Below are positions 38,160-56,707 of a DNA stretch of 64,000 nt, piece after piece. Each line of letters opens with the position of its first letter. Positions within the stretch are counted from its first letter, which is position 1. The notes under the pieces are model-generated. The model was not told the DNA's origin. It searched no databases and saw only the letters and a program-made list of their open reading frames with translations. The DNA lies in NCBI GenBank assembly GCA_963641945.1, contig CAVIDW010000003.1, positions 16,874 to 80,873 on the forward strand, written 5' to 3'. A program made the position numbers and the translations under genes. Origin of the DNA: a bacterium (GTDB lineage: Bacteria; Bacillota_I; Bacilli_A; RF39; UBA660).

Positions 38160-38182
38160 TAAAATATATGAAAGGAAAAAAT

Positions 38183-39874: not shown

Positions 39875-39896
39875 AATTGTTTATAGGAGGCTTTAG

Positions 39897-41012
39897 GTGA
39901 AAAATAAAAAAGATGTCAAAAACAATAATAAAAGCACAAAGCAAAAAAAAATTAAGATATTAAATGATAAAAAAAGAACAAGAATATTGTTTTGCATTAC
40001 AGTACTTCTTACAATCTTGCTAATATCTTCAACATATGCTTGGTTTAAAGCATCTCTTAATGTAAAGGTTAAGTTTATAAATATGAAAGTATCTACAGAT
40101 AGTGGTCTATTTATATCATTAGATGGTGTCAACTTTTCCAGTGAAATAGAAGTATCAAGAGAATCAATTATGGAAGATATTAATGATATTTATCCAAATC
40201 ATACAAATCAATGGGCATCAAGTGGACTTTGGACAGTCTCATCAAATGGAATAGAAAATTCTAATTCAGATAAGTTTAATTTATTTTATGGTGAACTTGG
40301 TAAATATCGTAGTGGAGAGAAAAAAGGCCAAAGATATTTATCTACAATGAAGATAGATGAAAGTAAAAAACAATCATGGAATAGATATATTGCTTTTGAT
40401 ATATTTTTAAAGAATGTAAGTGGTTCACCAAAAAGTGATAATTTATACTTAACTGAAGAGACATATTTTCAATTTGAAGATGGATATTTAGAAGGTTTAG
40501 AAGAAGATGATAGAGTTGAAATGGAAGGAATAATGAATTCTATTAGGCTTGGAATTGTAAGAATAGGTGATACTACTCTTAATGCTGATAAAGACACAAT
40601 TCAAAATTTAAAATGTAATAATAATTGTAAAACTATAATATATGAACCATTTAGTACTTCGCATACAGAAAAATCAATTGAAGATGCTGCTGAATATGGA
40701 ATTACAATGAGTAATGGAGAGTATATTCCAACTTATGGAGTATATAGTGAAGGAATATATTTAAATCATAAGAGTTGTTACTTTAATTCTGGAGTTTCAA
40801 TTGATACAGAACATTTTGCTCTACAAAAAACAATAAAAGATTCAAATTTAGATGATCCAATATTTCAATTACCAAATGGTATAACAAAATTACGTGTATA
40901 TATTTGGTTAGAAGGACAGGATATAGATAGTTTAGAAACACATTCAACAGGTGCTCCTATAGATGTTGGATTAGACTTTATAAAAGACTTATCAGGTTAT
41001 GAAGGATATTAG
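39897..41012 (+). CDS. secreted TasA-like family protein (third paralogue, no Ig tail)
   Basis: GTG start after an AGGAGG RBS. The signal reads ..ISSTYA/WFKASLN. It shares YIAFDIFLKNVSG and LRVYIWLEGQDIDSLE with the paralogues. Confidence 0.6.
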   Translation: MKNKKDVKNNNKSTKQKKIKILNDKKRTRILFCITVLLTILLISSTYAWFKASLNVKVKFINMKVSTDSGLFISLDGVNFSSEIEVSRESIMEDINDIYPNHTNQWASSGLWTVSSNGIENSNSDKFNLFYGELGKYRSGEKKGQRYLSTMKIDESKKQSWNRYIAFDIFLKNVSGSPKSDNLYLTEETYFQFEDGYLEGLEEDDRVEMEGIMNSIRLGIVRIGDTTLNADKDTIQNLKCNNNCKTIIYEPFSTSHTEKSIEDAAEYGITMSNGEYIPTYGVYSEGIYLNHKSCYFNSGVSIDTEHFALQKTIKDSNLDDPIFQLPNGITKLRVYIWLEGQDIDSLETHSTGAPIDVGLDFIKDLSGYEGY

Positions 41013-41030
41013 TAAAGGAAGTGATAAAAA

Positions 41031-44000
41031 TTGACAAGATTAAATTATAAAAAAATTATATATCTTTTAATTACGTTAATTTTTATAATGGGTATTACTA
41101 TTGCTATTCCTTCATTAGCAAGATATAAAAATAGAGTAAACACAGAAATAAATGTATGGGATGGAACTGTAGCAACCAGTTTCAAAAGTGGAGAAGGCAC
41201 AGCTTCATCTCCATATATAATTTCAAATGGTAGTGAACTTGCTTATCTTTCTGATTCATTAAAGGCAAACAATTATGAAGGTATTTACTTTAAAATATCT
41301 AGTGATATTGTTTTAAATGATGGAAAATTTAATTATGAAGATAATAAATACATATATGAAAAAGACAATAATAAATATTATATAAAAGATGATAAATATT
41401 ATAGTGATATTGGATATACAAGCGAAGTTGGCTCATTAAATATTTTAAATTCACTAGAAGGATTTAAAGGTACATTTAATGGAGATTCCCATGTAATATC
41501 AGGATTATATATGTATAATGATGAATCAGCTTTATTTAAAAGTTTAAATGGAAAAGTAGAAAAATTATATATTAAAAATTCTCTTTTAACGGGAAATAAA
41601 GCTGCATCACTAGTAACAAATTCTACTTCATCAATTATAAATGAAATACTATTTGATGGATTTGTTATTAGTAATGCAGAAAGTAAGATAAAAAATGGAA
41701 CAATTTCTATTGATACAATAGAATTAAACAATAATTCAAAGACAATAACTATAAATATAGATGATAGTATAGAAAGTTATAATAATATTAGTTCAATTAC
41801 AGTAAATGGTGACTATAATATAGATACTAATAATGGTTCTGTTTTAATAAACGAAACACCTGTAACTGATAATCATTTTGAAATAACTACAACAAATAAA
41901 TATTTTACAATTACTGCTAGTTCTACAGAAATAACTAATATTGGATTTGATAATGTATCATATGAAATAACTTATAATGATAATATGGCTAGTGGAATAG
42001 CGTTAAACGTTACCAACACTGAACTTACAAATATTATCAATAAAGGAAAAATATATTCTAATAATGTTTCAAGTGGAATAGTTGGAATATTAAATAACTC
42101 AAATTTAACTAATGCTTATAATAATGGAGTAGTAAATACTTTAGGTGGAATAACTTCATATATAACAGGAAGTTCTAGTTTAATTAATGTATATAATACT
42201 TATGAAGAAACATCTTTGATTAATATAATAGAAAATTCAAATTTAAATATAATTGGCTCTTTTAATACATCAAATATTAAACCAATAAATAATAATATTA
42301 ATTCAGTATTAAGTATCCAAGACTCATATATAGTTGATAGTTCTTTAGACAGTACATCTAGTTTTACCATAAAAACGATAGAAGAATTAAAATCAGAAAA
42401 TATGAAGAATATATTCCATGAATATATTTCACTTGATGACTTAAATTCAAATATAGATAATGCTTGGATATATGAAAATGATAGTTATCCACTTTTATTT
42501 AATGATGATATAACTAATGGAATTGCAACTCTTCATATTAAAACATATTCATATGATAATTTTAGTAATGTTTTAGAGACATTTAATTATAAAGATAATG
42601 TTTCATTTGGTATAGAAGATAATGATGAATTAAATCCTAGTAGTAAATATTATTATATTCATAATAGTAATACGCCTCTATCAAAAACAGAACTTGAAAG
42701 CATTGAAAATTGGATAGAATATAATCAAATACAAACAATATCTGAAGAAGGAAATTATATAGTATATGTTAAACTAGTAAATAATAATAAAACATATTAT
42801 ATAAATTCAGATGTATTTGCTATTGATAAAACTATTCCAAGTGTTACATTAACATTAGATAATAATGTATGGAATTCATTAAATACCGAATTAAATACAA
42901 TAGATATAGATGGCGAAAAGGCATTTACAATTGATGCTGTTGACTTACTATCAGGAGTTAAATCAATAAAATATTATTTATCAAAAAATATATTAAGTGA
43001 AACAGAATTAAGTAGTGTAGAGTGGATTACTTATGATGAAAATGCAAAAATTAAAGATTTAGGTAAATATATCATATATGTAAAAGTAAGTGATAAAGTT
43101 TCAAATGAAACAATAATAAATAGTGATTATATAAATTATGATGGATATAAATTAACTATAACATCTGGTAATCATTTGAATAGTAATTTAAATATAACAG
43201 ATAAATCTAAATTAAAATTTAAATTTATATATGATGGAGAAAACAATGTATCTGGAACACATAGTTTAGTTTCAAACACACTATTGCCAAATGGAACAAT
43301 AATAACATTAAATGATCAAAATAAAATATATGAACATATAGTTGATAACATTTCAAACAATTATGGATATGAAACTAATAATTATGCTACATATAATTTT
43401 GTACTATTTAAAGAAAAAAATAAATATAATGATACTTACTATCAAGAAAGTAATAGCGTTGGAGTAGAAAATATAGAAGTTACAATAGACTTTAAAAATA
43501 CAAATTTAACAAATAATTTAGAAAATGTTACATTATCATTAAATATTGGCAATGATAGAAAAACACTACAAAGTAACATTAAAGAATTTAATGTATATAT
43601 AGATAGTGATGCTACACTTGAATTAACATCAACTTATGACAATAAAGAAATAGAATTTAATATAGATTCAACTATAAGTATAGAGTTATCTAGTGGTGTT
43701 AAATATGCTACCAAAGATTCACAATCAGTTTTAGATACAACATATGAAGATAAAATGCAGGGCATTGCAATTAAATTACTTGATAGCAATAATAATATTT
43801 TAGATAAAACATATTTAGAAAAATTAGTATTTACTATAGATGGAATAAATTATACACCAGATAATGATAATATAATAAGAATCCCATTTAGTGATACAAC
43901 ATCATTAACAACAAAATCATTATTAATTACAACATCAAAAAGTGATTTAAATCTAACTGAAGATAATATAAATATAGAAATATCTAATTATATCTCATAT

Positions 44001-44444
44001 GATGGAAAGTACTATAATGAATTAAATAACAGCATTATAATTCCAGTTGTAATAACAAATAATAATAAAACAACAACTGATTATGAATTTAGTATTACAG
44101 TAGCAGATGAATCAAGAATAATAAATAAGAAAGATGAAAGTACTACATTAGATTTTGATATTGTTACCAAAAACATAATAAATCCTACAATTAAAGTTTC
44201 ATTATATAAAAAAGATAAATTAACAGCATATGATCAAACATACAATATAGTTGACTTAAAAGAATATACAACATCCACATTACAATCTTTTACTACAAAT
44301 GTATATTTGACAGATATAAATGATACATTTACTTTAAATTTAATACCTAGTAAATTTGAAAGCAATGGATATAAATTTGTATTTGATTTATATAGTGATA
44401 ATGTAAAAATAAATACTATAGAAAAGTATTTTATTGCTAAGTGA
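41031..44444 (+). CDS. 1137-aa Asn/Ile-rich secreted giant protein with SipW-type signal, beta-helix-like N-terminal region and tandem Ig-like modules
   Basis: TTG start after an AGGAAG RBS. The signal reads ..AIPSLA/RYKNRVN. GEGTASSPYIISNGSELAYL..YFKISSDIVLNDG is typical of passenger/beta-helix adhesins. Two repeated ..EL.S(I/V)EW(I).Y..I...G.YI(V/I)YVK modules follow. Confidence 0.6.
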   Translation: MTRLNYKKIIYLLITLIFIMGITIAIPSLARYKNRVNTEINVWDGTVATSFKSGEGTASSPYIISNGSELAYLSDSLKANNYEGIYFKISSDIVLNDGKFNYEDNKYIYEKDNNKYYIKDDKYYSDIGYTSEVGSLNILNSLEGFKGTFNGDSHVISGLYMYNDESALFKSLNGKVEKLYIKNSLLTGNKAASLVTNSTSSIINEILFDGFVISNAESKIKNGTISIDTIELNNNSKTITINIDDSIESYNNISSITVNGDYNIDTNNGSVLINETPVTDNHFEITTTNKYFTITASSTEITNIGFDNVSYEITYNDNMASGIALNVTNTELTNIINKGKIYSNNVSSGIVGILNNSNLTNAYNNGVVNTLGGITSYITGSSSLINVYNTYEETSLINIIENSNLNIIGSFNTSNIKPINNNINSVLSIQDSYIVDSSLDSTSSFTIKTIEELKSENMKNIFHEYISLDDLNSNIDNAWIYENDSYPLLFNDDITNGIATLHIKTYSYDNFSNVLETFNYKDNVSFGIEDNDELNPSSKYYYIHNSNTPLSKTELESIENWIEYNQIQTISEEGNYIVYVKLVNNNKTYYINSDVFAIDKTIPSVTLTLDNNVWNSLNTELNTIDIDGEKAFTIDAVDLLSGVKSIKYYLSKNILSETELSSVEWITYDENAKIKDLGKYIIYVKVSDKVSNETIINSDYINYDGYKLTITSGNHLNSNLNITDKSKLKFKFIYDGENNVSGTHSLVSNTLLPNGTIITLNDQNKIYEHIVDNISNNYGYETNNYATYNFVLFKEKNKYNDTYYQESNSVGVENIEVTIDFKNTNLTNNLENVTLSLNIGNDRKTLQSNIKEFNVYIDSDATLELTSTYDNKEIEFNIDSTISIELSSGVKYATKDSQSVLDTTYEDKMQGIAIKLLDSNNNILDKTYLEKLVFTIDGINYTPDNDNIIRIPFSDTTSLTTKSLLITTSKSDLNLTEDNINIEISNYISYDGKYYNELNNSIIIPVVITNNNKTTTDYEFSITVADESRIINKKDESTTLDFDIVTKNIINPTIKVSLYKKDKLTAYDQTYNIVDLKEYTTSTLQSFTTNVYLTDINDTFTLNLIPSKFESNGYKFVFDLYSDNVKINTIEKYFIAK

Positions 44445-44456
44445 GGATGTGCGTAA

Positions 44457-44993
44457 ATGAAATATAAAATATTAAAATTATTAATAATTGCAGCACTAGC
44501 AGTATTTGGACTAGGTATTACATATTCAATATTTAGTTCAAATACACTAGCTTCTGGTGATCAAAAAATAGCAAAATTTATTTTTAATGCTGAAGAAGTA
44601 GATAAACTTTCTATCCCTATTACCGACTTAAAACCAGGATATACAAATGATTTTGATTTTTCAGTTAGTAATAGTAAGGACGAAAAAATAAGTGATGTAA
44701 CAATAGAATATCAAATGACTATAAAAACATTTCATTTGGTACCATTAAATATAGAATTATATAAAGTAGATGGAGAAAGTGAAACATTACTTATAACATG
44801 TGATGAAACATTTTCAAGAAATGAAGATAATGAACTTGTATGTAATCTTCCAATAGAAGAATTAGATTATCAAAAAGAAATCAAAAATAATTATAGATTG
44901 AAAATATCTTTCCCAGAAGAATATAATGATGAAGTATATTCTAATTTAGTAGATTATATTGATATTGAAATAAAAAGTTGGCAAAAGGTATAG
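44457..44993 (+). CDS. small TasA/camelysin-like secreted protein
   Basis: The signal reads ..GLGITYS/IFSSNT. LKPGYTNDFDFSVSN parallels TasA LKPGDKLTKDFQFEN. Confidence 0.6.
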   Translation: MKYKILKLLIIAALAVFGLGITYSIFSSNTLASGDQKIAKFIFNAEEVDKLSIPITDLKPGYTNDFDFSVSNSKDEKISDVTIEYQMTIKTFHLVPLNIELYKVDGESETLLITCDETFSRNEDNELVCNLPIEELDYQKEIKNNYRLKISFPEEYNDEVYSNLVDYIDIEIKSWQKV

Positions 44994-45004
44994 AAAGGAA
45001 TATT

Positions 45005-45880
45005 ATGAAAAAGAAAAAAAGTTTATTATTAATTCTAATCATATTAGCTAGTTTCTTATTCATAAGTTCTATTTCCTTAGCTAAATATGTATCAAATAAA
45101 GTATGGAATCAATATTTAAAATCACAAGGTTTTTACTTTGAAAGCGAAAATTTATCAACTACAGGTAAGACAACAGTAAATACTTTATGGAATGGTTCAC
45201 AAGTAGATTTAGTTATACAAAATAATAATTTGAATCAAATAACGGATACTGATATAGAATATGAAATGACTTGTAGTATAGAAGGTGAGCAAAATGATTC
45301 ATTAAAATGTTTATCAAATGGAAAAGATACATATATTGGTACATTATCTGCTACAAGTACATGTGTAAATGATTCTAATATTGATACAAGCACCTTAACT
45401 AAAACAGAATGTGAATTAGGAGGATATACTTGGCAAAATATGATTGCTAAGAATGACTTATATTTTGAAATAGTTAAAACAGATGAATCGTATGAATTAA
45501 GTGATGTAACAGTAAATGTAACCATTACGAGTAAAAAGCCATACAAAAAAACATTAAAAGGAACGTATATATTAAAGTATAATAATATTGAAGATGGAAT
45601 AGTAACATCATCTTATAAAAATTATACTGATTATAATAGATTAACTATAACAAATTCATATGATACAAATAAATGTATAAATATTTCATATGATGGGAAT
45701 ACAAAAACATTAGATGTTGATTCTAGTCTAGCTAAAGGTTCTAATCAAGAAGGCAATATTAATGAAATGGAATTTATTATAAAAGGTAAAACTAGTGAAA
45801 GTTTTATAGTATATGATAGTAGTGAAGAATTAACTGATAACTTTGTTATTAGTGTTATAGATGAATGTAAAGGTAGTTGA
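45005..45880 (+). CDS. secreted Cys-containing protein with SipW-type signal
   Basis: ATG at 45005 (MKKKKSLLL..). The signal reads ..SSISLA/KYVSNKV. Several Cys residues sit in the mature part. Confidence 0.55.
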   Translation: MKKKKSLLLILIILASFLFISSISLAKYVSNKVWNQYLKSQGFYFESENLSTTGKTTVNTLWNGSQVDLVIQNNNLNQITDTDIEYEMTCSIEGEQNDSLKCLSNGKDTYIGTLSATSTCVNDSNIDTSTLTKTECELGGYTWQNMIAKNDLYFEIVKTDESYELSDVTVNVTITSKKPYKKTLKGTYILKYNNIEDGIVTSSYKNYTDYNRLTITNSYDTNKCINISYDGNTKTLDVDSSLAKGSNQEGNINEMEFIIKGKTSESFIVYDSSEELTDNFVISVIDECKGS

Positions 45881-45922
45881 TATTAATTTTCAACTGTGAT
45901 AATATAGAATAGGTGGTAATGT

Positions 45923-46447
45923 ATGAAAGTATTAAATGCAATAAAAAAATTTTTTCTAGGAGTTTTAACATTTGTGTTCTTTGTTTACGCGATTGCAATG
46001 ACATTTCTATTATTAAATTTTAATGATTACGGAGTTACAGAAGTTGGGGATACATCTGTAATTATAATTAAAGATAAAATATCTAATGAAAATTATAAAA
46101 AAGGTGACATTGTACTTGTAGAAAATAAGCAAATGAAGAATATACAAGTAGGAGATGAGTTATTTGCTTATAGAATTGATTCTAAAGGTGCTGCAAATAT
46201 TGAAATAGGAACAGTTGGTCAAGTACATTTAGATAGCGAAGCAGTTACTTTTGAAAATGGAGACTCTTACTCATATGAATTCTTAATCGGAGAAGGAACT
46301 AAAACTATTGGTAGTTTTGGAACATTCTTGGGACTAGTCGAATCTAAATGGGGATTCTTATTCACAGTACTAGTACCAAGTTTCATATTCTTTGTATATA
46401 ATCTATATGCATTAATCGTAGAAATAAAATACGGAGATGAAGAATAA
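45923..46447 (+). CDS. SipW-like bitopic membrane protein lacking recognisable catalytic motifs (possible pseudo-peptidase)
   Basis: SipW-like size and topology (N-terminal and C-terminal TM helices) and a KGDIVLV..VGDELFAY beta-core pattern. GSMxP and THR(I/V) boxes are absent. Confidence 0.4.
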   Translation: MKVLNAIKKFFLGVLTFVFFVYAIAMTFLLLNFNDYGVTEVGDTSVIIIKDKISNENYKKGDIVLVENKQMKNIQVGDELFAYRIDSKGAANIEIGTVGQVHLDSEAVTFENGDSYSYEFLIGEGTKTIGSFGTFLGLVESKWGFLFTVLVPSFIFFVYNLYALIVEIKYGDEE

Positions 46448-46566: not shown

Positions 46567-46989
46567 ATGAAAAAATATTTAGCAATAACGTTTTTTGTAC
46601 TAACAATTGCAATTGTAACAAATTATGTCATAGTGAAAGCAGCAACATATCCATCGCCAGTAGGAACTTCATTCAGCAAAGAACTTGACAAAAACCAAGC
46701 ACAATACACATTTTGGAGAACAAAAACAAACTATTCAAGACAAACTTATGAAAACTTAGATGCTTTTACAAAATTAACAGATCCATGTCCTAATTGCAAA
46801 ATAGGTGCTAAACCATTTTTAGATAATGGTGATTTTCATTCTGGTATTGTAACAACATTAGGACATGTTGGAAAATTTAGTTCAACGTCTTCCACACCAG
46901 GAAATTACAGATTAAGCGTATGGAGAGTTGATGCAACATTGTTAACCACTTATCATTCTGCTCTTTGGACAATGAACAGTAATAATTAA
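46567..46989 (+). CDS. small secreted protein (140 aa) with CPNC motif
   Basis: Sec-type signal ..VIVKA/ATYPSP and AGGAGG RBS. I recognised no family motif. Confidence 0.6.
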   Translation: MKKYLAITFFVLTIAIVTNYVIVKAATYPSPVGTSFSKELDKNQAQYTFWRTKTNYSRQTYENLDAFTKLTDPCPNCKIGAKPFLDNGDFHSGIVTTLGHVGKFSSTSSTPGNYRLSVWRVDATLLTTYHSALWTMNSNN

Positions 46990-47039
46990 TAACAAAATAT
47001 AATGCAAATTTTCTTTATTTTAATTAATGGAGTGAAAAA

Positions 47040-47921
47040 ATGAAAAAAATAATATTTAATAATATACCTTTAATAATCAGTTTTTTATTTTTATTTTCAT
47101 TAGTTGTTTATGGACATTTGGAATATAAGAATGAGGTTCAAGGGATAAATGATACATATAATAAATATGTTACGGAATGTTCTCTATCCAATTTTGAAGA
47201 TGAAGAATATATAAGTTATTGCAATGATTTACTAGAAGACAAATATTATCCTAATTTTTTTTCAGAAGTTAGCTATATAATACATACAGTTAATTATATA
47301 TCAATGGTTTTATTTTTCACAGTAAGTATGCCAAGCTTATATTATATCTCAAAATATTTAAAAAATGGGATCATAAAAAACGAACTAACAAGAAAAACTT
47401 TTAAAAAATGTAAAATAAATTTACTTGCTATTTCATATAAAGGTGCATTAATATTACCTATAATTGCAATTGTAATGTTTGTTTTAAGTTATGCAAATAC
47501 AAAAACATTTGAAACATTTAACATGCAAGATATTATCTGGGAAAATTCGACTACAGCAAATCCATATTTATTTATAATAATGTATTTAATAAATATTACA
47601 ATCCATTCTATATTGTATTGTAATATATCATTATGCATAGTTAGAAAAAAACATAATTATTATGTTTCATCAATATTGTCTTACCTAACATTTATTGCAA
47701 TTGAATTGATACTAGAGCTAGGAATAAACACTATATTATTTGGAAAAATATTTAAAATAAACCTAGGTGTAATATTAAGTATATTTAATGTATTAGCATT
47801 TAATGACAGCTATGGAGTTTTGGCACCACTTGTAGTTCCAACTATTATGCTATGTATATCATATGTATTCTTATATTTTATGTATAAAGATAAAGAAAAA
47901 TTAATTATAGATTGTAATTAG
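47040..47921 (+). CDS. polytopic membrane protein, ABC-2-type permease-like
   Basis: TM1, then an extracytoplasmic loop, then about five further TM helices. It lies adjacent to the ABC ATPase. Confidence 0.5.
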   Translation: MKKIIFNNIPLIISFLFLFSLVVYGHLEYKNEVQGINDTYNKYVTECSLSNFEDEEYISYCNDLLEDKYYPNFFSEVSYIIHTVNYISMVLFFTVSMPSLYYISKYLKNGIIKNELTRKTFKKCKINLLAISYKGALILPIIAIVMFVLSYANTKTFETFNMQDIIWENSTTANPYLFIIMYLINITIHSILYCNISLCIVRKKHNYYVSSILSYLTFIAIELILELGINTILFGKIFKINLGVILSIFNVLAFNDSYGVLAPLVVPTIMLCISYVFLYFMYKDKEKLIIDCN

Positions 47922-47929
47922 GAGTTAAA

Positions 47930-48574
47930 ATGAAAATTGAATTTAAAAATGTTAATAAAAATTTTAAAAAAGTTGAGATATTGAAACAGATTAATTTAAA
48001 ATTCGAAACTGGAAATGTATATGGAATCTATGGTAGAAATGGCAGTGGTAAGAGTGTATTTTTGAAGATGATTGCAGGGTTTATGCTTCCGACGAGCGGA
48101 GAAATACTTTTTGATGGTGAAAATTTAAATTTTAAAAATGAATTTCCGAAAGATTTGAGAGCATTAATAGAAAATCCATCATTTTTCCCAGATTTAACTG
48201 GATTTGAAAATTTAAGATTATTAGCTAAAATACAAAATAGGATAGGAGATAACGAAATATTAGCAGCATTAGATATAGTTAACTTAACAGATGAAAAAGA
48301 TAAAAAATACAGTAAATACTCTTTAGGAATGAAACAAAAATTAGGAATAGCTCAAGCAATAATGGAAAATCCTAAAATATTAATATTAGATGAGCCATTC
48401 AATGGAATAGAGGAAAAAACAGTCAAAAAAATAATTGATTATCTAAATGAAATTAAAAAAGATAGAATAATAATAATAAGTACACATATTATAGAAGATC
48501 TGCATAAATTAACAGAAAAAATATATTATTTTGATAATAAGGAAGTTTATGAAAATATTAAAAAACAGAGTTGA
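47930..48574 (+). CDS. ABC transporter ATP-binding protein
   Basis: GRNGSGKSV Walker A, YSLGMKQKLGIAQAI signature and ILILDEPFNG Walker B. Confidence 0.85.
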   Translation: MKIEFKNVNKNFKKVEILKQINLKFETGNVYGIYGRNGSGKSVFLKMIAGFMLPTSGEILFDGENLNFKNEFPKDLRALIENPSFFPDLTGFENLRLLAKIQNRIGDNEILAALDIVNLTDEKDKKYSKYSLGMKQKLGIAQAIMENPKILILDEPFNGIEEKTVKKIIDYLNEIKKDRIIIISTHIIEDLHKLTEKIYYFDNKEVYENIKKQS

Positions 48575-49286
48575 ACAAATTCTAACCGTCAAGGATCATG
48601 TCTTAATATATTTGATTATTGTATTAGGGGTGTGTATACCGACATTTTCAGGACTAGCTAGCGAAAATTTTTGGGTAAGATTATATAGTATTAACACGAC
48701 TCCAATTTATTTAACAATGTTTTATTTATCTACAGGGTTATTCACTATGTATTCAATAAAGAACTATTGCTTAGAATACAATATACTGATAAGAAATACA
48801 AATTATAAGCAAATGATAGATGATAGTTTAAAAGTAATAATATTTGGGACAATATTTTTAAATATTATAGGTTTACTTTTAACTATAGCTGGAGCAGTAA
48901 TTTTCTGTTATAACGATTTTTCGGTAATTTCTCATCCGATATATAATATATCATTTATAAGTTACATGTTATTTTTTGCCTTAAGAGGGTTGACTATCTC
49001 CTGCATAATAAATGTAACGTTATATTTGTTATATATGCTATTTAAGGACTACGCAAATATAATTTTGATTGCAATTTGTTCAAGCTTTACAGCATTACCA
49101 TCTAAATCAGTAAAAATATTGCATTTTTATAACATGCCATTGTTGTTTCATAACTATTATTTTAATATAGAATATTCAACATTTTATTTAGAAATATTAT
49201 GTTCAACTATCGAGACGTTACTATTAATAGGAATATGCAAATTATTATATTATTTTGCGATAAAGAAGAAAAGAGACATTATATGA
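48549..49286 (+). CDS. polytopic membrane protein (putative ABC-2 permease component)
   Basis: ATG at 48549 follows an AAGGAAG RBS and overlaps the ATPase 3' end. About six TM helices. Confidence 0.5.
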   Translation: MKILKNRVEQILTVKDHVLIYLIIVLGVCIPTFSGLASENFWVRLYSINTTPIYLTMFYLSTGLFTMYSIKNYCLEYNILIRNTNYKQMIDDSLKVIIFGTIFLNIIGLLLTIAGAVIFCYNDFSVISHPIYNISFISYMLFFALRGLTISCIINVTLYLLYMLFKDYANIILIAICSSFTALPSKSVKILHFYNMPLLFHNYYFNIEYSTFYLEILCSTIETLLLIGICKLLYYFAIKKKRDII

Positions 49287-49912
49287 AAATACAATCTAAA
49301 ATATTATTAGAAAGATTCAAAAAGAATATTTTGTATATTACAATATACTTTATAAGCTTAATATTTGGAGTAATACTGTTTTATTTAAGAAACAAACAAA
49401 TAGAATTTAATATAGATGAATTCTTAGTACTTATTAATTTTCCAAAATTCTCAAATTTAAGTTACTTATATGAATTAATTAAAATATATGAAATTGGATT
49501 ATTAGTGTATTTAGTATATGACTATTATACTTATGATTTAAATTATTCATTAGATAATATTATGATAAGAGAAAGTGTAAATAAATGGTATTTAAATAAA
49601 ATAATAATATTCAGTATATTTATAACTTTATTTAAAATATTTGAAGTATCAATATTATATTTAATTCATAGTAGTGAAGTATCATTTGATATTAATTTTT
49701 ATATCTATTCAATCATATTTGATATATTTATTTTATTAATCATCACAACATTATATAACTATAGAAGAAGCATTTTAAACTATATATTTTTATCAATAAT
49801 ATTAATTTATATATATTTAAGATTTAATGTAATAATAGTTCTTATTTTGTCTATAATTATCGCTATTTTTAATTATAAAACATTAAATTTCACCAAGAAT
49901 TTTACTGAATAA
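49283..49912 (+). CDS. polytopic membrane protein (putative ABC-2 permease component)
   Basis: ATG at 49283 forms an ATGA overlap with the upstream stop. About six TM helices. Confidence 0.5.
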   Translation: MKIQSKILLERFKKNILYITIYFISLIFGVILFYLRNKQIEFNIDEFLVLINFPKFSNLSYLYELIKIYEIGLLVYLVYDYYTYDLNYSLDNIMIRESVNKWYLNKIIIFSIFITLFKIFEVSILYLIHSSEVSFDINFYIYSIIFDIFILLIITTLYNYRRSILNYIFLSIILIYIYLRFNVIIVLILSIIIAIFNYKTLNFTKNFTE

Positions 49913-49916
49913 AATG

Positions 49917-49938
49917 AACTAGACTTTAGTCTAGTTTT
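49917..49938 (+). terminator. hairpin terminator after the ABC module
   Basis: AACTAGAC-TTTA-GTCTAGTT followed by TT. Confidence 0.55.
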
Positions 49939-49960: not shown

Positions 49961-49989
49961 TTGCATGAATTTTGTTAATATGGTAGAAT
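49961..49989 (+). promoter_or_regulatory. promoter with extended -10 for the 50021-56688 operon
   Basis: TTGCAT (49961-49966), a 17-nt spacer and TGgTAGAAT (49981-49989). Confidence 0.6.
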
Positions 49990-50020: not shown

Positions 50021-52144
50021 ATGAAAAAAATGAATAAAGTTGTTGAAAAAGTAGCAAATGTATCATTAAATATACTAATCGGAATATTTGCAATCATATT
50101 GCTTATATTTATATATAAAGGATTTCAAGTTAAAATTTTAAAGAATGATTTTAATTTCTTTGGATATACAATGTTTGAAGTTCAAACAGGAAGTATGAAA
50201 AGTTATATTAATGCTGGAGATTGGGTAGTAGTAAAACTTACAAAGGATGTAGATATTAATGATGTCATTACATTTAAGCAAGATGGAAATAATATTACAC
50301 ATAGGGTAATTGAAATATATAATGGAACCTATATTACCAAAGGGGATGCTAATAATTCGAAAGATGACCCAATAGATCAAAGTCAAATAATTGGAAAGGT
50401 AGTGAAAGTTCTTAGCGGATTTGGAATACTGCGAAAAACAATATTTAATCCAGCAGTAATAATTGCTTTAATAATAACTTTGTTATTATTTAATTTAACT
50501 TTTAAGAATGATGTGGAAAGTATGAAAAAGAAAAAACAAATAAGAATTATAGTAAATAAGATAATAAATCTCTTTAAAAATATTAAGAAAGATGAATTTA
50601 GTGATTTGGATAAATTTGATGAATCTAAGAAAGAAAGAATAGAAGAAGAAAAAATCATCAAGCAAGAAATACTTGATGAGGGTGACATTCAAAAAGAGCC
50701 AAAGAAAGAAGAACTAAGTAAAACATCAATGTTTAGAGTTGTTAGTGTTAGAAAAGAAGGACATAAACCTAAAGAAGAATCAAAAATAGAAGAAAAAATT
50801 GAAGCAGATGAAGAAATAATTGAATCAGAAAAAACTCCTGAGCAAATTGAAGAAGAATTAAGTAAAACTTCTATGTTTAGAATAATTAAAGCTGATACAA
50901 GTGATATAGACAAAAAAATAAAAAAGATAATTAAAAAAGAAAAAAAGGAAAATAAAGATAATAACGTCTATACAGTAACTCTAGAAGCAGAAAAAGTAGT
51001 TAAAAAACTTGATAAAAATATGGGAAAAAACGAAAGAAGTGAAAAGAGTGAATCTATAAATTCAAATGATTTAAAAATCAAAACATATAATACAAAAGCT
51101 AAGACAATAATAGAAAAAGCAATTAAAGTAAAAAAACTAGAAATAAATCAAGTAATCGATGTTATATTAGAAGGTCAAAAATCATATGTAATTAAATCAA
51201 GTTTTAGAACAGACTTTATAGATGCATATATTACTAGTAAATATTATTTGGCAGAAAATTCAAATAGTATTGGTGATGTAAAAGAATCTATCAGTGCTTT
51301 AAGTAAAAAACTAACAAAGAAGAACATTAGAGATGAAAAACAAAAGTTAATTATTAAAACATATGAAGATTTAATGCTTTTATATTCAAATATTGATAAA
51401 TACAATAAAGATGAAGAAAATAGAATAACTTTTTATCAAAAGACATTAAGAAAATATAGTAATTGGGATATAGAATATATTAATTATTTAGTTTATAGAA
51501 TTATTGAAATACAAAATAAATGTTTAGATGAAATGGAAGAAAGTTATAAAAAACTAGAAACAGATACATTTGAAATAACATTTAATAAAATATCAAATAA
51601 TAAAGATTTATATTCAGCAGTATTAAATCATAATATATCATTTAGTAGTGTATATAGCGATTATATAGTTGATAAAACATATAATGAAGGAATCGTATCA
51701 GAAGATAAAGTAGTAGTTCTTATAACATTATTATCAAGTAGAATTGCAAAAGATATAACGAACTATGATTATAATAAAAAATATGTAGTTTATATGCCAA
51801 GCGGATTATATGAAAAAGAAAAGAAAATGGCTGGATTATTAAAATTAATTGAAGATGAATATGCTAAAAATCATATCTATATATTATTAGATGCTAATAC
51901 GTTGATATTGAACAAGAAAATAACAACGAATCTTAAAAAACAAGGATATAATTTTGCAGTTGTATTAAATGATGAAAGCAAAATTAATGAAAAAAACATA
52001 GGTGCATTGTATTTAGCAGATTATATATTTGTAAGTAAAGATATTAAAAACATATCAAATATAATTGGAGAAGTACCTAATGAACTTTTAGAAAAAATTG
52101 TAAAAGAAAATATAAAAAAATTGGGTGATTTTGGAGGCGAATAA
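50021..52144 (+). CDS. SipW-type (ER-type S26B) signal peptidase fused to a ~540-aa cytoplasmic extension
   Basis: The N-terminal ~160 aa comprise a TM helix, QTGSMKS (Ser box), ITHRVIE (His box), TKGDANNSKDDP (Asp box) and a second TM helix. A K/E-rich linker with duplicated EELSKTSMFR(V/I) follows, then a globular domain of about 330 aa of unknown family. Confidence 0.7.
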   Translation: MKKMNKVVEKVANVSLNILIGIFAIILLIFIYKGFQVKILKNDFNFFGYTMFEVQTGSMKSYINAGDWVVVKLTKDVDINDVITFKQDGNNITHRVIEIYNGTYITKGDANNSKDDPIDQSQIIGKVVKVLSGFGILRKTIFNPAVIIALIITLLLFNLTFKNDVESMKKKKQIRIIVNKIINLFKNIKKDEFSDLDKFDESKKERIEEEKIIKQEILDEGDIQKEPKKEELSKTSMFRVVSVRKEGHKPKEESKIEEKIEADEEIIESEKTPEQIEEELSKTSMFRIIKADTSDIDKKIKKIIKKEKKENKDNNVYTVTLEAEKVVKKLDKNMGKNERSEKSESINSNDLKIKTYNTKAKTIIEKAIKVKKLEINQVIDVILEGQKSYVIKSSFRTDFIDAYITSKYYLAENSNSIGDVKESISALSKKLTKKNIRDEKQKLIIKTYEDLMLLYSNIDKYNKDEENRITFYQKTLRKYSNWDIEYINYLVYRIIEIQNKCLDEMEESYKKLETDTFEITFNKISNNKDLYSAVLNHNISFSSVYSDYIVDKTYNEGIVSEDKVVVLITLLSSRIAKDITNYDYNKKYVVYMPSGLYEKEKKMAGLLKLIEDEYAKNHIYILLDANTLILNKKITTNLKKQGYNFAVVLNDESKINEKNIGALYLADYIFVSKDIKNISNIIGEVPNELLEKIVKENIKKLGDFGGE

Positions 52145-52146
52145 TT

Positions 52147-53709
52147 ATGAATACATTCTTACGATTTTTTTACGAATTTATATCAATATTTTTTGATGGA
52201 GTAGAAAAAATTGTAAAAGGCTTTATAAATGGCTTTATGCAAATGTTTAATTATGGAGATTATAAACAAATAATAAGCAATTATAAAGGAAGTTTTAGTG
52301 GAATAGAATGGGTATTTGTAGGATTAGGTGTGGCATTTTTTGTTCTCCTAGTTGGAGCAATTTTAGTACTTATATTTATGGGTATTAGAAAAATATTTAG
52401 ACTTAGAAAAGAGAAATTAAATCAAGATGAATTATTAGATGAAATTGGGGAACTAAATGATAAAGTTAAGCAATTGATGAAAGAAAAAGATGAATTAATG
52501 GCCATGAAAGTTTCTCAATTAGGATTAAATCCAAAAGATGAGCCAACAGAAGAACAAAAAGAAGAAAATAAAAATGCTGATGGTTATACTGAAGAAGAAC
52601 AAAATACAGAAGACCTTGATGAAGCTGGAAATGTTCGTTTTCCTAAACTTGTTAGAATCGATCAAGAATATAAGAATTATAAAATTAAAAATTATAATAA
52701 CAACTTCTCTTTAGAAGAATTAATAGATAACTTTAGATGTTTTGCTGCAAGTCAACTTCATTTATATTATGAAGCACATTTGTTAAGAGCATTCATTGGA
52801 GGTCTTGCTTGTGGTAAATTAATTATCTTACAAGGTATTTCTGGTACAGGTAAAACATCTTTAGCATATGCTTGGGGTAAATTTGTTAAAAATGATTCAT
52901 GCGTAGCATCAGTTCAACCATCATGGAGAGATAAAACTGAATTACTTGGATACTTTAATGAATTTACTAAAAAGTTTAACGAGTCAAACGTTTTAGAAGA
53001 GTTATACTTAGCCGGATATGATGATAATGTTCATACAATAATACTTGATGAAATGAATATAGCCAGAGTTGAATATTATTTTGCAGAAATGCTATCTATA
53101 TTAGAATTACCTCAAAGAAGTGAATGGCAGATTGAACTTGTATCTACAATATGGCCAGATGATCCAAAAAGGTTGGATAAAGGAAAACTTCATTTACCTG
53201 GAAACTTATGGTATATTGGAACAATCAATAATGATGACTCAACATTTATGGTAACAGATAAAGTATACGATAGAGCAATGCCTATTGATATAAATAAAAA
53301 GATAGATCCATTTGAATGTAGAGAACAAGAAGCAGTTGCTATAAACTCAAGTTATTTAGAAAGTTTATTTAAACAAGCATTCGAAGATCATAAATTATCA
53401 CAAAAATCAATTAAAATGGTTGAAGAAATTGATAATTATGTTATCGCTCATTTTAGAGTTGCATTTGGTAATCGTATTATGAAACAATTAAGAGACTTTA
53501 CAGCAGTTTATGTAGCTAGTGGTGGAGATGAAGTAGAAGCAATAGACTATTTTCTAGCACAAAAAGTATTAAGAAAATTTGACCAATTAAATATTGCTCA
53601 AATAAGAGATGAAATAGATGGTTTTATTAAATATCTTGATGCATCAACTGGTAAAGGCAAAATGAAAGAATGTATTGCATTTTTAGAAAGATTAAAGAAA
53701 TCAGTTTAG
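52147..53709 (+). CDS. membrane-anchored McrB-family AAA+ GTPase homologue
   Basis: TM helix (WVFVGLGVAFFVLLVGAILVLIFMGI) followed by RKIFRLRKEK, then a coiled coil. The core is McrB-like: ILQGISGTGKTS, VQPSWRDKTELLGYF, IILDEMNIARVEYYFAEMLSILE, NLWYIGTINNDDS (NxxD), YDRAMPIDI. Confidence 0.75.
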   Translation: MNTFLRFFYEFISIFFDGVEKIVKGFINGFMQMFNYGDYKQIISNYKGSFSGIEWVFVGLGVAFFVLLVGAILVLIFMGIRKIFRLRKEKLNQDELLDEIGELNDKVKQLMKEKDELMAMKVSQLGLNPKDEPTEEQKEENKNADGYTEEEQNTEDLDEAGNVRFPKLVRIDQEYKNYKIKNYNNNFSLEELIDNFRCFAASQLHLYYEAHLLRAFIGGLACGKLIILQGISGTGKTSLAYAWGKFVKNDSCVASVQPSWRDKTELLGYFNEFTKKFNESNVLEELYLAGYDDNVHTIILDEMNIARVEYYFAEMLSILELPQRSEWQIELVSTIWPDDPKRLDKGKLHLPGNLWYIGTINNDDSTFMVTDKVYDRAMPIDINKKIDPFECREQEAVAINSSYLESLFKQAFEDHKLSQKSIKMVEEIDNYVIAHFRVAFGNRIMKQLRDFTAVYVASGGDEVEAIDYFLAQKVLRKFDQLNIAQIRDEIDGFIKYLDASTGKGKMKECIAFLERLKKSV

Positions 53710-53720
53710 GAGTGAATTAA

Positions 53721-54842
53721 ATGGCAAAGACAAGTATAGAAATTGACAAAGAAATAAAAAAACAATGTAATCTTTTTCTAAAAAATACAGAATCAAATAT
53801 GCATTATCTTGCAGATTTAGATAATACATTAAGTTCTACAAAATGGTTAGAAATAATGGAAGAAACATTTCCATATTTAGATACATATATTAGAGCTCCA
53901 AAAGTAGCATTAATTACTGAAACAGAAACACAACCCATTGAAAAAGCAAAAAAAATTGGAGTAGAAAGTGTTAAAGATTTAGCAAAACATAGTAATTATA
54001 TTGAAAATGTAGTTAGTGATAAAGATATTAAACCATCAAAAATACTTGTCTTACTTCGTGAAGAAACATACAATACATACGAGAATAGATTTATTTATAC
54101 ATTGGTTCATGAAACTTTAAGATTTATAATTTTAATGGAAGAAAAACTAAAAAAATTAGAATCAAAAGATCAAAAACAATTAGAGTATACATCTAATACA
54201 AATAATGGAAAAGATAAAATTAAAATATGCTTAAGAATCAGTGCTGTTGAAATAGATAAAGGATCAAAAAATAGTGATTTTGAAGCACAAGTTAGTAATA
54301 TCAAAAAAAGATTAAAATTACTAAAGGAATATATAACTTTATGGCAAAGATGTGAAATGATGGAATCACTTAAAAAAGCACATGTTCCATTTGTAACATC
54401 TCCAATTAAAAAGACTAATTTAATATTAAAAAATCCAAACTTTAAAGAAGCAACAAAACTATGGAATTTTTTAATGAATTACTTAGATAATGAATCAAAT
54501 AAAAATAAACTATATGATACAAATGGTAATCAATTCTTAAGAAATATATTAGATGAATCATTTTTGATGGATTATTATGTATTAGATGCAATCTCAAATA
54601 TAAGAAAGAATCAAAGAGATAAGCTTACACAATATGCTGTATTAATGATTAGTGAACAAGTTAAAAAATCAATGGAAATATTACTATATAATGGAATAAA
54701 GGTATCTGAAGAAAAACTATTACAAATGGTAAATATAGAAATAAATAATGATAAAAGTAAAATGGCACTAGGAAGTAGTGATATAAAGAAAAAATTTGAA
54801 AAAGAAATGAATGAATACCTGGCAAAGGTTCAAAATTTATAG
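53721..54842 (+). CDS. McrC-like (N-terminal domain only) partner protein with no recognisable PD-(D/E)xK nuclease motif
   Basis: It occupies the McrC position 12 nt after the McrB-like gene. ETYNTYENRFIYTLVHETLRFI resembles the McrC EDTLANRIIKSTL region, and LKNPNFKEATKLWNFLMNY is also present. I see no D..(D/E)xK motif equivalent to IIDAKYY. Confidence 0.5.
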   Translation: MAKTSIEIDKEIKKQCNLFLKNTESNMHYLADLDNTLSSTKWLEIMEETFPYLDTYIRAPKVALITETETQPIEKAKKIGVESVKDLAKHSNYIENVVSDKDIKPSKILVLLREETYNTYENRFIYTLVHETLRFIILMEEKLKKLESKDQKQLEYTSNTNNGKDKIKICLRISAVEIDKGSKNSDFEAQVSNIKKRLKLLKEYITLWQRCEMMESLKKAHVPFVTSPIKKTNLILKNPNFKEATKLWNFLMNYLDNESNKNKLYDTNGNQFLRNILDESFLMDYYVLDAISNIRKNQRDKLTQYAVLMISEQVKKSMEILLYNGIKVSEEKLLQMVNIEINNDKSKMALGSSDIKKKFEKEMNEYLAKVQNL

Positions 54843-54851
54843 GAGCAAATA

Positions 54852-55424
54852 ATGAAAAAAATAAAAAATAATAAAGTACTAAAAATTATACTTAAAGTTA
54901 TTAAAGCTTGTATAATTATAACATTAATAGCATTTATATTAGTTGTTTTTTTACAAAGATTCAGTAATAATAAATTATCATTATTTAACTATAGAATCTT
55001 TGCAGTAGCAACTGGTTCTATGCAACCAAAATATAATATTGGTGATGTATTAATATCAAAAGATGTAGATCCAAGTAAATTAAAAGTTGGAGATAATATT
55101 AGTTATTTAGGAACTAAATCAAATTTTAAAGGAAAAGTTATAACGCACCAAATAGTTAAAATTGAAACAGATGAAAATGGTAAATTATTATTCTATACAA
55201 AAGGTATAGCAAATCTAGTAGAAGATCCAGTAGTTGAAGAAGGTCAAGTGTATGGAAAAGTTATTTATAAAACAATTTTATTATCATGGTTATATAAATT
55301 TGTTAGTACAAGTACTGGGTTTGGATTAATAATAGTTATTCCAATAATAATAATTATTGGATATGAAATACTTGCAACATTACTAGAAAAAAAGGAAGAA
55401 GAAATTAACTCAAAAAGAAAATAG
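54852..55424 (+). CDS. SipW-type signal peptidase homologue with altered Asp box
   Basis: N- and C-terminal TM helices, ATGSMQPKY (Ser box) and ITHQIVK (His box). TKGIANLVEDP stands where SipW has KGDNN. Confidence 0.7.
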   Translation: MKKIKNNKVLKIILKVIKACIIITLIAFILVVFLQRFSNNKLSLFNYRIFAVATGSMQPKYNIGDVLISKDVDPSKLKVGDNISYLGTKSNFKGKVITHQIVKIETDENGKLLFYTKGIANLVEDPVVEEGQVYGKVIYKTILLSWLYKFVSTSTGFGLIIVIPIIIIIGYEILATLLEKKEEEINSKRK

Positions 55425-55440
55425 AAAAGGAGGCACAAAA

Positions 55441-56688
55441 ATGAAAAAAAGACATAAATTATATATAAAACTTAATTTAGTTTCATTAATTTTCATTGTT
55501 GTGTCTTTAATTTTTACAACACTTGCATGGTTTGCATATAGTGGTTTATCTTCCTTAGATACAGAAATCGGTGTAAAAGCATGGTATATAGAATTAACTA
55601 AGAATGGCGAAGCAGTTGCTAATGATATAGTTATTTCAATTCCAACAATTTATCCAGGAATGGATACAATAACTGAAAAGATAAATATTGAAAATTTTGG
55701 TGATTCCGTTGCACAGGTAAAATATGAAATTTTATCAGCAAGAATACTTGACACTAAATATGATACAGAAAATGATAAAAGTATTGTTTCAGAAGATTTA
55801 GAAACATCATTATCTCATGATTATCCATTTCATATAAATATAAGTTTGAGTGATTATGTTGTTGATTCAAATGGTGGAACAGCAACATTTAAAGTAAGCG
55901 CATCTTGGCCATTAGATGGTGGAAATGACAGTGCTGATAGTGAATGGGGAACGAAAGCATATGAATTCTCTCAAGCAGAAAAAAATAAACAAGCAACTGA
56001 TTCAAATTATGCTATAGACTCACCAATTCAAGTTGTAATAAAAGTAAGTGCTGAGCAATATGTTGATAGTGATACATCAAGTTCAAGAGATTATGCATAT
56101 GGTAATACAATATTATATAATGTAGTAGCAGATGATTTTTGTTCTAAAGTTAGTGACACATGTATAAGTACAACAGTAATTGATGAAAACAATAAAATAG
56201 GCGATGAAACAATTACTGTAATACCAAATATATTAACAAAATTTACAGAGGCAACTTATGATAATTATAATAATACATTAAATAGTATTACTTCAAACTG
56301 GAATGTAGAATATAGAGCTTTAACAGCAGATGATGTATTAAAAATTATTTCAAGAGATATAGAATCATCAAATATGATTAGTTCTTCATTATCTAATATA
56401 ATAATTGGAAAAATGAATTCATCAGAATTAATAAATCAAACATTGAACAATGCAGTTTTACTAGATGGACATTTTGAATTTATTAATGATAATTTTAAAT
56501 TTTTATATAATTCTTCAAGTACATGTTATTGGACAATGACAGAATATAATACAAGTAAAGGTTACGCTTTCTCAAAGATAGATAGTAGTAAATCTAAATT
56601 ATATGGAGAAAATAAAACCACTTCTTGTCAAGTATTACCAGTAATAATAATAACAAAAAAAGAAATTATAAAGGAAGAAAATGGTTAA
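55441..56688 (+). CDS. TasA-like secreted protein with SipW-cognate-type signal and extended C-terminal domain
   Basis: The signal reads ..IFTTLA/WFAYSGLS. IYPGMDTITEKINIENFGDSVAQVKYEI and IQVVIKVSAEQY are TasA-like strands. Confidence 0.6.
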   Translation: MKKRHKLYIKLNLVSLIFIVVSLIFTTLAWFAYSGLSSLDTEIGVKAWYIELTKNGEAVANDIVISIPTIYPGMDTITEKINIENFGDSVAQVKYEILSARILDTKYDTENDKSIVSEDLETSLSHDYPFHINISLSDYVVDSNGGTATFKVSASWPLDGGNDSADSEWGTKAYEFSQAEKNKQATDSNYAIDSPIQVVIKVSAEQYVDSDTSSSRDYAYGNTILYNVVADDFCSKVSDTCISTTVIDENNKIGDETITVIPNILTKFTEATYDNYNNTLNSITSNWNVEYRALTADDVLKIISRDIESSNMISSSLSNIIIGKMNSSELINQTLNNAVLLDGHFEFINDNFKFLYNSSSTCYWTMTEYNTSKGYAFSKIDSSKSKLYGENKTTSCQVLPVIIITKKEIIKEENG

Positions 56689-56707
56689 AAAAATAACCAT
56701 TTTTTTA
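56681..56707 (+). terminator. intrinsic terminator closing the 50-56.7 kb operon
   Basis: ATGGTTA-AAAAAA-TAACCAT followed by T7. It overlaps the stop codon. Confidence 0.7.

Follow-up and report, generated by a model that had tools for sequence, protein, structure and literature searches.

In a 64,000-nt stretch of DNA from a bacterium of the RF39 lineage (hereafter the window; GenBank assembly GCA_963641945.1, contig CAVIDW010000003.1, positions 16,874 to 80,873 of the forward strand), five adjacent genes, here called P1 to P5, bring together a predicted GTPase pair derived from McrBC, two SipW-type signal peptidases and a secreted protein with remote similarity to TasA. We favor, with some reservation, the reading that this GTPase module no longer recognizes DNA or carries the nuclease, and instead works in the biogenesis of TasA-like surface fibers that are processed by SipW. 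If this is true, extracellular fibers are built or gated here by a motor that is otherwise known only in DNA restriction, and this would be a new principle of filament biogenesis in Gram-positive bacteria; by current understanding, TasA-type fibers assemble without an energy source.

The association was first noticed in the window from the sequence alone. That original prediction described a five-gene operon and offered two interpretations, namely a GTP-driven ring acting on a membrane protease/fiber pathway or a defense system with a membrane effector. We recovered the five open reading frames (ORFs) on the plus strand with intergenic gaps of 2, 11, 9 and 16 nt, in exact agreement with its coordinates (Table 1), and a GGAGG-like ribosome-binding site precedes all five start codons. 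The framing as a five-gene operon was nevertheless too narrow. These genes form the 3΄ part of a conserved locus of ~23 kb (33909–56688), at least nine further genes of which lie upstream (nine at 33909–46447).

Recurrence of the gene set in related genomes

The coupling of the McrB-like pair with SipW/TasA genes, predicted from this one sequence, was borne out by a neighborhood survey. One genome per GTDB species was scanned with the P2 GTPase, which yielded at least 572 relatives, and the best 80 loci (47–69% identity) were kept; these come from metagenome-assembled genomes labeled Bacilli, Tenericutes/Mollicutes, Erysipelotrichaceae, Clostridia, Oscillospiraceae or Ruminococcus. Homologues of individual genes were tallied over 84 related loci (L001–L084), whose ORFs were labeled first with phmmer and then with family hidden Markov models, and layout counts used the loci with sufficient flanking sequence (73, 71 and 69 testable for the respective features, and 46 flanked by ≥5 kb on each side). 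Among the 46 fully flanked loci, a SipW-like gene was found in 45, and genes for secreted substrates of the AWF or TasA type (see below) were likewise found in 45. An McrC-like gene lay ≤100 nt downstream of the GTPase gene in 71 of 73 loci, and a SipW-like gene followed within ≤2.6 kb in 59 of 71. In 56 of 69 loci the gene immediately preceding P2 encoded the C-terminal module of P1 (P1C), which was fused to SipW in 14 of those.

Three layouts were distinguished. In layout A, the type of the window, P1C is fused to the SipW peptidase. Layout B, the commonest, has a separate P1C gene (~325 aa), an extra peptidase upstream and a shorter P5 (~200–270 aa), and in the clostridial layout C the GTPase gene directly follows a peptidase gene, with an McrC-like protein of 700–820 aa. 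The C-terminal 300–430 residues of these long McrC-like proteins (L075–L084; for example, L075:11569–13743) form a charged helix of the KEKAKEK/ERIAREK type; a fused P1C was considered for this extension and rejected, as the segment is a low-complexity charged helix. Small TasA-like subunits (170–230 aa) were the most constant substrates, often with two or three copies per locus. Four minimal loci contained only P1C (where upstream sequence exists), the GTPase and the McrC-like gene; two of them, L073 (8919–13874) and L076 (8916–13868), have no adjacent peptidase, with large proteins carrying a GAT(F/Y)AYF signal nearby, and also encode a conserved soluble protein of ~417 aa that belongs to no known family. 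In two further loci, L020 (375-aa ORF) and L068 (417-aa ORF), a SipW-like and a TasA-like domain (of the type of P5 or of the 178-aa protein in Table 1) stand in a single ORF, which is either a fusion or a frameshift or assembly artefact.

Among species-representative genomes, the system has at least ~570 occurrences, most of them in uncultured Bacilli and Clostridia of the gut and rumen. Database relatives of the P2 GTPase number more than 8,000, and at E ≤ 1e-30 they fall into 734 clusters (50% identity); the best 120 show 66–93% identity over their full length and derive from uncultured Bacilli.

Proteins of the locus

P2 resembles McrB both in structure-derived and in curated sequence families: it matched the E. 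coli McrB structures (6hz4) at E = 1e-4 and the NCBIfam McrB family at 1.7e-5, and AAA_5 was found in 36 of 41 relatives. It carries a Walker A motif (G230–T237), a Walker B motif (D301–E302) and the signature N361-x-D363-D364. In the GTPase alignment of 41 sequences, N361, D363, T359, S365 and T366 were invariant and D364 was at least 90% conserved; an ungapped phmmer alignment pairs the E. coli NTAD with N361..D364, and the reading of the signature as NxD rests on D363 as the invariant Asp. No DNA-binding family of Pfam or NCBIfam was found in the N-terminal 150 residues, which run from a hydrophobic segment through a transmembrane segment and a helix to an acidic linker. The transmembrane segment is the only one in P2 and is followed by a basic stretch and an amphipathic helix of ~40 residues, and by the positive-inside rule the protein is predicted to lie N-out/C-in with a cytoplasmic GTPase domain. 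This topology would be opposite to that of FtsB, and the similarity of P2 to FtsB/FtsL/DivIC is weak (NCBIfam FtsL_Actino, E = 0.009; Pfam DivIC in 2 of 41 relatives).

By sequence, P3 appears to be a McrC homologue that lacks the PD-(D/E)xK nuclease. All 27 members of its family matched DUF2357, and none of the 27 matched a nuclease family at E ≤ 0.1. Residues 250–373 contain neither an invariant column nor a D...(D/E)xK pattern, and no invariant acidic residue or Lys occurs beyond position 248; searches of the PDB sequences with P3 alone and with its family profile returned nothing meaningful. These profile searches agree with the predicted McrBC-derived pair of a membrane-anchored McrB-like GTPase and an McrC-like protein without a nuclease motif, and placed neither protein in an unrelated family.

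The two ER-type signal peptidase homologues that had been read in the operon were likewise confirmed. Against TIGR02228 (archaeal/ER-type signal peptidase I; curated cut-off, 51.85 bits), P1 scored 66.8 bits and P4 82.8 bits. The catalytic Ser and His were invariant across the P1 peptidase family (120/120) and near-invariant in the P4 family (118/137). Both proteins fell far below the cut-off of the Bacillus SipW equivalog NF046067 (49 and 72 bits, respectively, versus 190). By these family scores and residues, P1 and P4 are SipW-type peptidases rather than SipW orthologues, and are predicted to be active and to face outward. A match of P4 to KwaA (PADLOC, also NCBIfam; E ~1e-3) was dismissed, because it falls on the transmembrane region.

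Beyond its peptidase, P1 extends into the cytoplasm through a K/E-rich linker and ends in P1C. The duplicated linker motif EELSKTSMFR was sought in related loci, and only the closest relatives (L001–L003) carry a conserved copy; it could be a short docking motif. For P1C, a word-indexed homologue search gave 13 proteins, and the AlphaFold2 model built on this shallow alignment reached a predicted local distance difference test score (pLDDT) of 79 and a predicted template modeling score of 0.79. Foldseek matched this model to ~45 EAL-domain structures (probability 0.96–1.0; E = 2e-4 to 6e-2; target-normalized template modeling score (TM-score) ~0.45–0.51), among them those of FimX, YdiV and LapD, whose EAL domains are degenerate and non-catalytic. 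None of 25 P1C members matched the EAL family PF00563 even at E ≤ 1, and they shared no recurrent Pfam family; the P1C family profile retrieved no EAL chain and no meaningful match among PDB sequences. The invariant residues of P1C are mostly K, Y, N and S, and the canonical EAL residues are unrecognizable. Therefore, we describe P1C, as modeled, as a degenerate EAL-like domain, matched in fold and not in EAL sequence family or catalytic residues. Because P1C is fused to the SipW peptidase in the clade of the window and encoded separately elsewhere, a Rosetta-stone relation, peptidase and cytoplasmic module would act together physically, and very likely they form one complex.

The secreted proteins make up the largest part of the locus. 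In the AlphaFold2 model of P5 (pLDDT 85.6), a signal-anchor is followed by a beta-sandwich and an additional alpha/beta domain, the last of which is missing from the shorter homologues (~200–270 aa) of other clades. P5 alone matched nothing in Pfam or NCBIfam, and Foldseek of the full model gave no match below 1e-3, with the TasA fiber 8aur third (E = 0.015, probability 0.44); the two-domain architecture of the model probably depresses the global Foldseek scores. When P5 and the family of the 178-aa protein (o44457), which hhalign relates at a probability of 93.9%, were joined in one profile and compared with 177,635 PDB sequences, the two best matches were TasA (8aur_A, 0.0022; 5of1_A, 0.0039). 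The 178-aa protein itself reached Peptidase_M73 (PF12389) at E = 0.007, below the cut-off, and 3 of 74 family members matched, the best at 6.8e-4. The description of P5 as TasA-like therefore stands in part: TasA heads the matches of the joint profile, whereas the similarity is remote, at the superfamily level, and is the weakest of our domain assignments.

Better evidence of SipW-type processing than the TasA homology is provided by a motif. A cleavage-region motif, (S/T)(Y/F)AWF, terminates the signal-anchor in P5 and in three upstream paralogues, and three substrate families share it with a conservation of ≥80%; in the AWF paralogue family, the form sTYAWF is at least 80% conserved over 50–54 homologues. 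TasA has Phe at P2΄ and requires SipW (PMC10269814), and we predict a cut after the Ala of AWF. The residues immediately after this site show a conserved strand-like pattern, which seems to resemble the donor strand of TasA.

Among the proteins encoded upstream of P1, the 240-aa protein has C-terminal 40–45 residues similar to those of the AWF protein families o36623 and o39897 (hhalign probability 97–98%), and the 540-aa protein (34778–36400) had no match in Pfam or NCBIfam. The three AWF paralogues share 51% and 27–29% identity with each other (BLASTP), the first two ending in a bacterial surface immunoglobulin-like (Ig-like) domain (PF16403; 1e-9 and 1e-5), and are candidate fiber or adhesin subunits. 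The 178-aa protein is a candidate core fiber subunit, and the 1137-aa protein is possibly a tip or adhesin component. The 174-aa protein is related to the P4 family (hhalign probability 100%, E = 9e-42); it lacks the SM motif and has an invariant Tyr at the presumed His position, the columns being taken from the alignment of its own family and not paired to P4. These features suggest a pseudo-enzyme, that is, a dead SipW paralogue with a structural or chaperone role.

Table 1. Positions and properties of the locus genes, their domains and the flanking signals in the window
Feature	Position	Strand	Length (aa)	Properties
Membrane-anchored protein	33909-34631	+	240	one transmembrane segment; homologues in 42/84 related loci
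Soluble K/E-rich helical protein	34778-36400	+	540	no transmembrane segment; homologues in 23 related loci
Three secreted AWF paralogues	36623-38107, 38168-39781, 39897-41012	+		signal-anchor ending T(F/Y)AWF
Secreted protein	41031-44444	+	1137	N-terminal transmembrane segment/signal; weak OmpL47-type domain match; homologues of 1000-2400 aa in related loci
Secreted protein	44457-44993	+	178	closest TasA/camelysin relative in the locus
Secreted protein	44978-45880	+	300	hhalign to o44457 family, probability 95.7%; found in 50 related loci, where it usually lies shortly before the P1C gene
SipW-like pseudo-peptidase	45923-46447	+	174	two transmembrane segments; no catalytic Ser/His; in 56 related loci
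Five-gene ABC-transporter cassette (outside the system)	46567-49912	+		140-aa secreted protein, 293-aa polytopic membrane protein, ABC ATPase (47930-48574), two more membrane proteins
Hairpin closing the preceding gene, after the inserted cassette	49916-49937	+		-9.9 kcal/mol; z = -3.95; 0/200 shuffles as stable
Promoter-like site	49961-49989	+		TTGCAT (49961-49966), 17-nt spacer, TG (49981-49982), TAGAAT (49984-49989); extended -10; read from sequence
P1	50021-52144	+	707	
P1, N-terminal module (residues 1-165)	50021-50515	+		SipW-type signal peptidase between two transmembrane segments (7-41, 136-165); Ser58, His94, Asp109
P1, linker (residues 166-330)	50516-51010	+	~165	cytoplasmic, K/E-rich; EELSKTSMFR(V/I)(V/I) motif in duplicate
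P1C (residues 331-707)	51011-52144	+	377	predicted cytoplasmic module (AlphaFold2 and Foldseek): helical bundle and degenerate EAL-like alpha/beta barrel
P2, McrB-like AAA+ GTPase	52147-53709	+	520	conserved N-terminal segment, transmembrane segment ~48-86, coiled-coil-like helix ~84-125, acidic linker, GTPase domain
P3, McrC-like	53721-54842	+	373	DUF2357 N-domain at 6.6e-10 (above cut-off); no nuclease
P4, stand-alone SipW-type signal peptidase	54852-55424	+	190	Ser56, His99; two transmembrane segments; Asp of GD(A/N)N motif replaced by Ile
P5, secreted two-domain protein	55441-56688	+	415	signal-anchor ending TLAWF; beta-sandwich ~50-206; extra alpha/beta domain ~220-405
Terminator-like hairpin and T-run	56675-56706	+		-11.9 kcal/mol; z = -4.51; 0/200 shuffles as stable; overlaps the P5 stop codon

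Comparison with known systems and proposed function

The original prediction knew of no description in which McrBC-type and SipW/TasA modules are wired together. This claim of novelty is superseded, because the association had already been named CoCoPALM by Bell, Makarova, Wolf and Koonin (eLife 2024, PMC11090510; preprint 2023). In that paper, the account consists of three sentences with no component list; it describes an NxD-type McrB GTPase fused to an FtsB-like transmembrane/coiled-coil domain and defers the analysis to a later paper. Literature searches found no follow-up study on CoCoPALM, and we found no further details in the text supplements of the eLife paper. We assign the window locus to this class, as the main defining features are recognizable: the NxD(D/E) signature, an N-terminus composed of a transmembrane segment and a helix, an adjacent DUF2357 McrC homologue and signal-peptidase genes. 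A further likeness is that related clostridial loci encode McrC homologues with very long charged helices, whereas coiled coils are minimal in the clade of the window (by a crude heptad scan, P2 has only a short helix and P3 none detectable). The accessible text and supplements hold no mention that we could find of the EAL-like partner and its SipW fusion, the dead SipW paralogue, the AWF motif or the remote TasA link, nor does the accessible text give the span of the locus (~33.9–56.7 kb, split here by a cassette).

With E. coli McrBC, the window pair shares the AAA+ GTPase core, the Walker A and B motifs, the Asn/Asp signature and a DUF2357 partner directly downstream. It differs in having an NxD signature (N361/D363) instead of NxxD, a membrane anchor in place of the N-terminal DNA-binding domain and a partner without the PD-(D/E)xK nuclease, and in being set within a secretion/fiber locus. 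The CoCoNuTs (CnuB/CnuC) belong, like P2, to the NxD branch of McrB GTPases, and their McrC homologues often lack an active nuclease; according to Bell et al., they invariably occur together with HEPN or other nucleases and with helicases (PMC11090510). In contrast, the window locus has no nuclease or helicase, and its GTPase is membrane-anchored and not carried on a long soluble coiled coil.

On the secretion side, the tapA-sipW-tasA operon of B. subtilis and the sipW-tasA-calY genes of B. cereus likewise place an ER-type peptidase gene beside its substrates. The cleavage region of these substrates has Ala at P1 with Phe at P2΄, and the window substrates show remote sequence and fold similarity to them (TasA/camelysin). 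However, two to three peptidase paralogues (one of them dead) and more and larger substrates are encoded here, the GTPase/McrC-like/EAL-like module has no Bacillus counterpart, and the TasA similarity is marginal. The type IV pilus (PilB, PilC, PilD; FimX) is comparable by analogy only: it combines membrane-tethered subunits bearing a conserved N-terminal motif with a dedicated peptidase, a hexameric NTPase (nucleoside triphosphatase) on the cytoplasmic side and an accessory domain that is EAL-like. No component is homologous, and in the window system cleavage would occur at the outer face by a Ser/His peptidase, with a GTPase of the McrB family. In C. perfringens, export of the BsaA/SipW fiber reportedly relies on an apparatus that is associated with type IV pili and driven by an NTPase (PMC11580942), which likewise ties a SipW-processed, polymerizing matrix protein to a motor; there, the motor consists of type IV pilus proteins and no McrBC-like genes are involved. 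Together with FimX-PilZ-PilB, this case offers a precedent, by analogy only, for coupling an NTPase and an EAL-like domain to fibers.

The favored fiber system might operate as follows. Precursors would be inserted by Sec and tethered by their signal-anchors. The SipW-type peptidases would then cut after the Ala of AWF and free an N-terminal strand for donor-strand polymerization as in TasA; family knowledge and the motif evidence point to both of these steps. A GTPase hexamer, its pore occupied by the McrC-like subunit in the manner of McrBC, might gate or drive the peptidase and the hand-over of substrates, and would act through P1C, which is tethered to or associated with the peptidase. The EAL-like domain might serve as an adaptor or as a sensor of a second messenger or nucleotide, in parallel with the degenerate EAL domains of FimX and LapD; cyclic di-GMP signaling exists in the clade, because a close relative encodes a GGDEF protein. 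GTP hydrolysis would couple cleavage with fiber growth, so that the module could be a functional analogue of PilB/PilC/PilD. The GTPase is more conserved (47–69% identity in the 80 loci) than the secreted P5 (45–58% identity to homologues, closest relatives excepted), which fits a machine and its exposed product. The complete version of this scheme, an uncharacterized Gram-positive filament machine in which a GTPase ring, an McrC ‘camshaft’ and an EAL-like adaptor couple GTP hydrolysis to cleavage and donor-strand polymerization, is put forward tentatively, as a possibility that falls well short of the general proposal.

Several observations weigh against a role in fiber biogenesis. The fibers, the GTPase activity and the protein-protein contacts are all predicted from sequence, and the TasA homology is marginal (profile E ~2e-3; Foldseek probability 0.44; Peptidase_M73 in 3/74). 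The EAL-like assignment comes from a 13-sequence model (pLDDT 79) with TM-scores of ~0.45–0.5 and has no sequence support, and the coiled coils behind the class name CoCoPALM are short or absent in the proteins of the window itself. No conserved cytoplasmic recognition motif was found in the N-terminal tails of the substrates beyond positive charge. To our knowledge, TasA fibers in Bacillus need no NTPase, and a GTPase role of this kind would be without precedent.

Part of this also bears on the strongest alternative, which we consider rather unlikely: a secretion or quality-control machine that makes no polymer. In such a machine, each secreted protein would act on its own as an adhesin, an enzyme or a wall protein, and the ring would extract or clear the unusual signal-anchors once SipW has cut, or restrain the peptidase until a signal arrives. 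Several substrates are indeed large, multidomain and Ig-like, as is typical of adhesins, P5 has its extra globular domain, the TasA homology is weak except in the small subunits, and AAA+ rings are generally known to act on polypeptides. However, the combination of constant small subunits with one very large protein resembles sets of major and minor subunits with a tip adhesin, and the strand-like pattern that follows AWF, if it corresponds to the TasA donor strand, would be expected of a polymerizing protein.

A second alternative is an anti-phage or abortive-infection system, in which the McrBC-derived module senses infection and triggers membrane peptidases or secreted effectors. The characterized members of the McrB family are restriction enzymes, the nearest named relatives, the CoCoNuTs, are predicted to be defense systems (PMC11090510), and P2 matched the candidate-defense profile PDC-M26A of PADLOC at 3.7e-37. 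However, this match covers the GTPase core only (residues 149–332) and only the A component of PDC-M26; P1, P3 and P5 were unmatched, and P4 gave nothing save the KwaA hit on its transmembrane region. Scans with Pfam and NCBIfam found no nuclease in P3 or among the locus proteins, a transmembrane segment replaces the nucleic-acid-binding N-domain, and the locus of ~20 kb is mostly devoted to extracellular structural proteins. Its context is chromosomal housekeeping (MutS, FtsW, the arginine deiminase pathway, RbgA and Lon). Among 72,556 plasmids and 50,697 phages there were no full-length relatives, only GTPase-core matches of ≤40% identity, none covering 80%, and the 47–69% identity over the 80 best species genomes with conserved gene order is unlike patchy, fast-evolving defense islands. 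On these grounds we regard a defense function as improbable, and of the two interpretations originally offered, the GTP-driven ring on a membrane protease/fiber pathway is better supported. Chance adjacency, in which an McrBC remnant landed in a SipW/TasA cluster in this genome only, can practically be dismissed, given that the survey recovered the gene set and order in 80 of 80 species-level genomes as far as contigs allow, in three lineage-specific layouts, and with the peptidase fused to a GTPase-adjacent protein.

Two consequences follow for the study of such loci. As a warning, the presence of an McrB/DUF2357 pair need not mean a restriction or defense system. In addition, the peptidase/EAL-like fusion is a handle on communication between the cytoplasmic module and the cell exterior. 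Further handles at this locus are the dead peptidase, the AWF motif and the remote similarity to TasA. The system may shape the adhesion and biofilm behavior of abundant commensals.

Operon signals and genomic surroundings

The original prediction had placed P1–P5 in one transcription unit running from a promoter at 49961 to a terminator at 56681. Both flanking hairpins were far more stable than their shuffled controls, and the upstream one (49916–49937) is a probable terminator of the preceding unit; the promoter is supported by position only. Its -35 hexamer agrees with the consensus at 3 of 6 positions, so that a consensus scan did not list the site, and promoter-like sites as a whole were barely enriched in the window (126 found versus 103 expected) in DNA of ~77% A+T (23–27% G+C). 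We therefore treat the promoter at 49961–49989 as predicted and plausible by position.

Upstream of this site, the locus is split by the ABC-transporter cassette. No homologues of its proteins at 46567 and 47040, the two that were queried, were found in the 84 related loci, and in relatives of the window type the P1 gene comes directly after that of the pseudo-peptidase. Because the cassette is absent from related loci in which these genes adjoin, we interpret it as an insertion, to which the promoter at 49961 may owe its existence. The cassette (46567–49912) is perhaps an immunity or export cassette.

In the window as a whole (1–64000), nearly all sizeable ORFs lie on the plus strand, and the GC skew is positive throughout, with a monotonic rise of the cumulative skew. 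No tRNA genes were found in the 64 kb. These features fit a leading-strand segment of the chromosome in a Bacillota genome of low G+C content; contigs of related genomes measure 1.2–1.5 Mb. An arginine deiminase operon lies at 18164–22864, with the arginine deiminase gene followed by that for ornithine carbamoyltransferase. Its third ORF (20480–22864, 794 aa) joins an amino-acid/carbamate-kinase domain and a DcuC-type anaerobic carrier in one frame, an unusual enzyme-transporter fusion.

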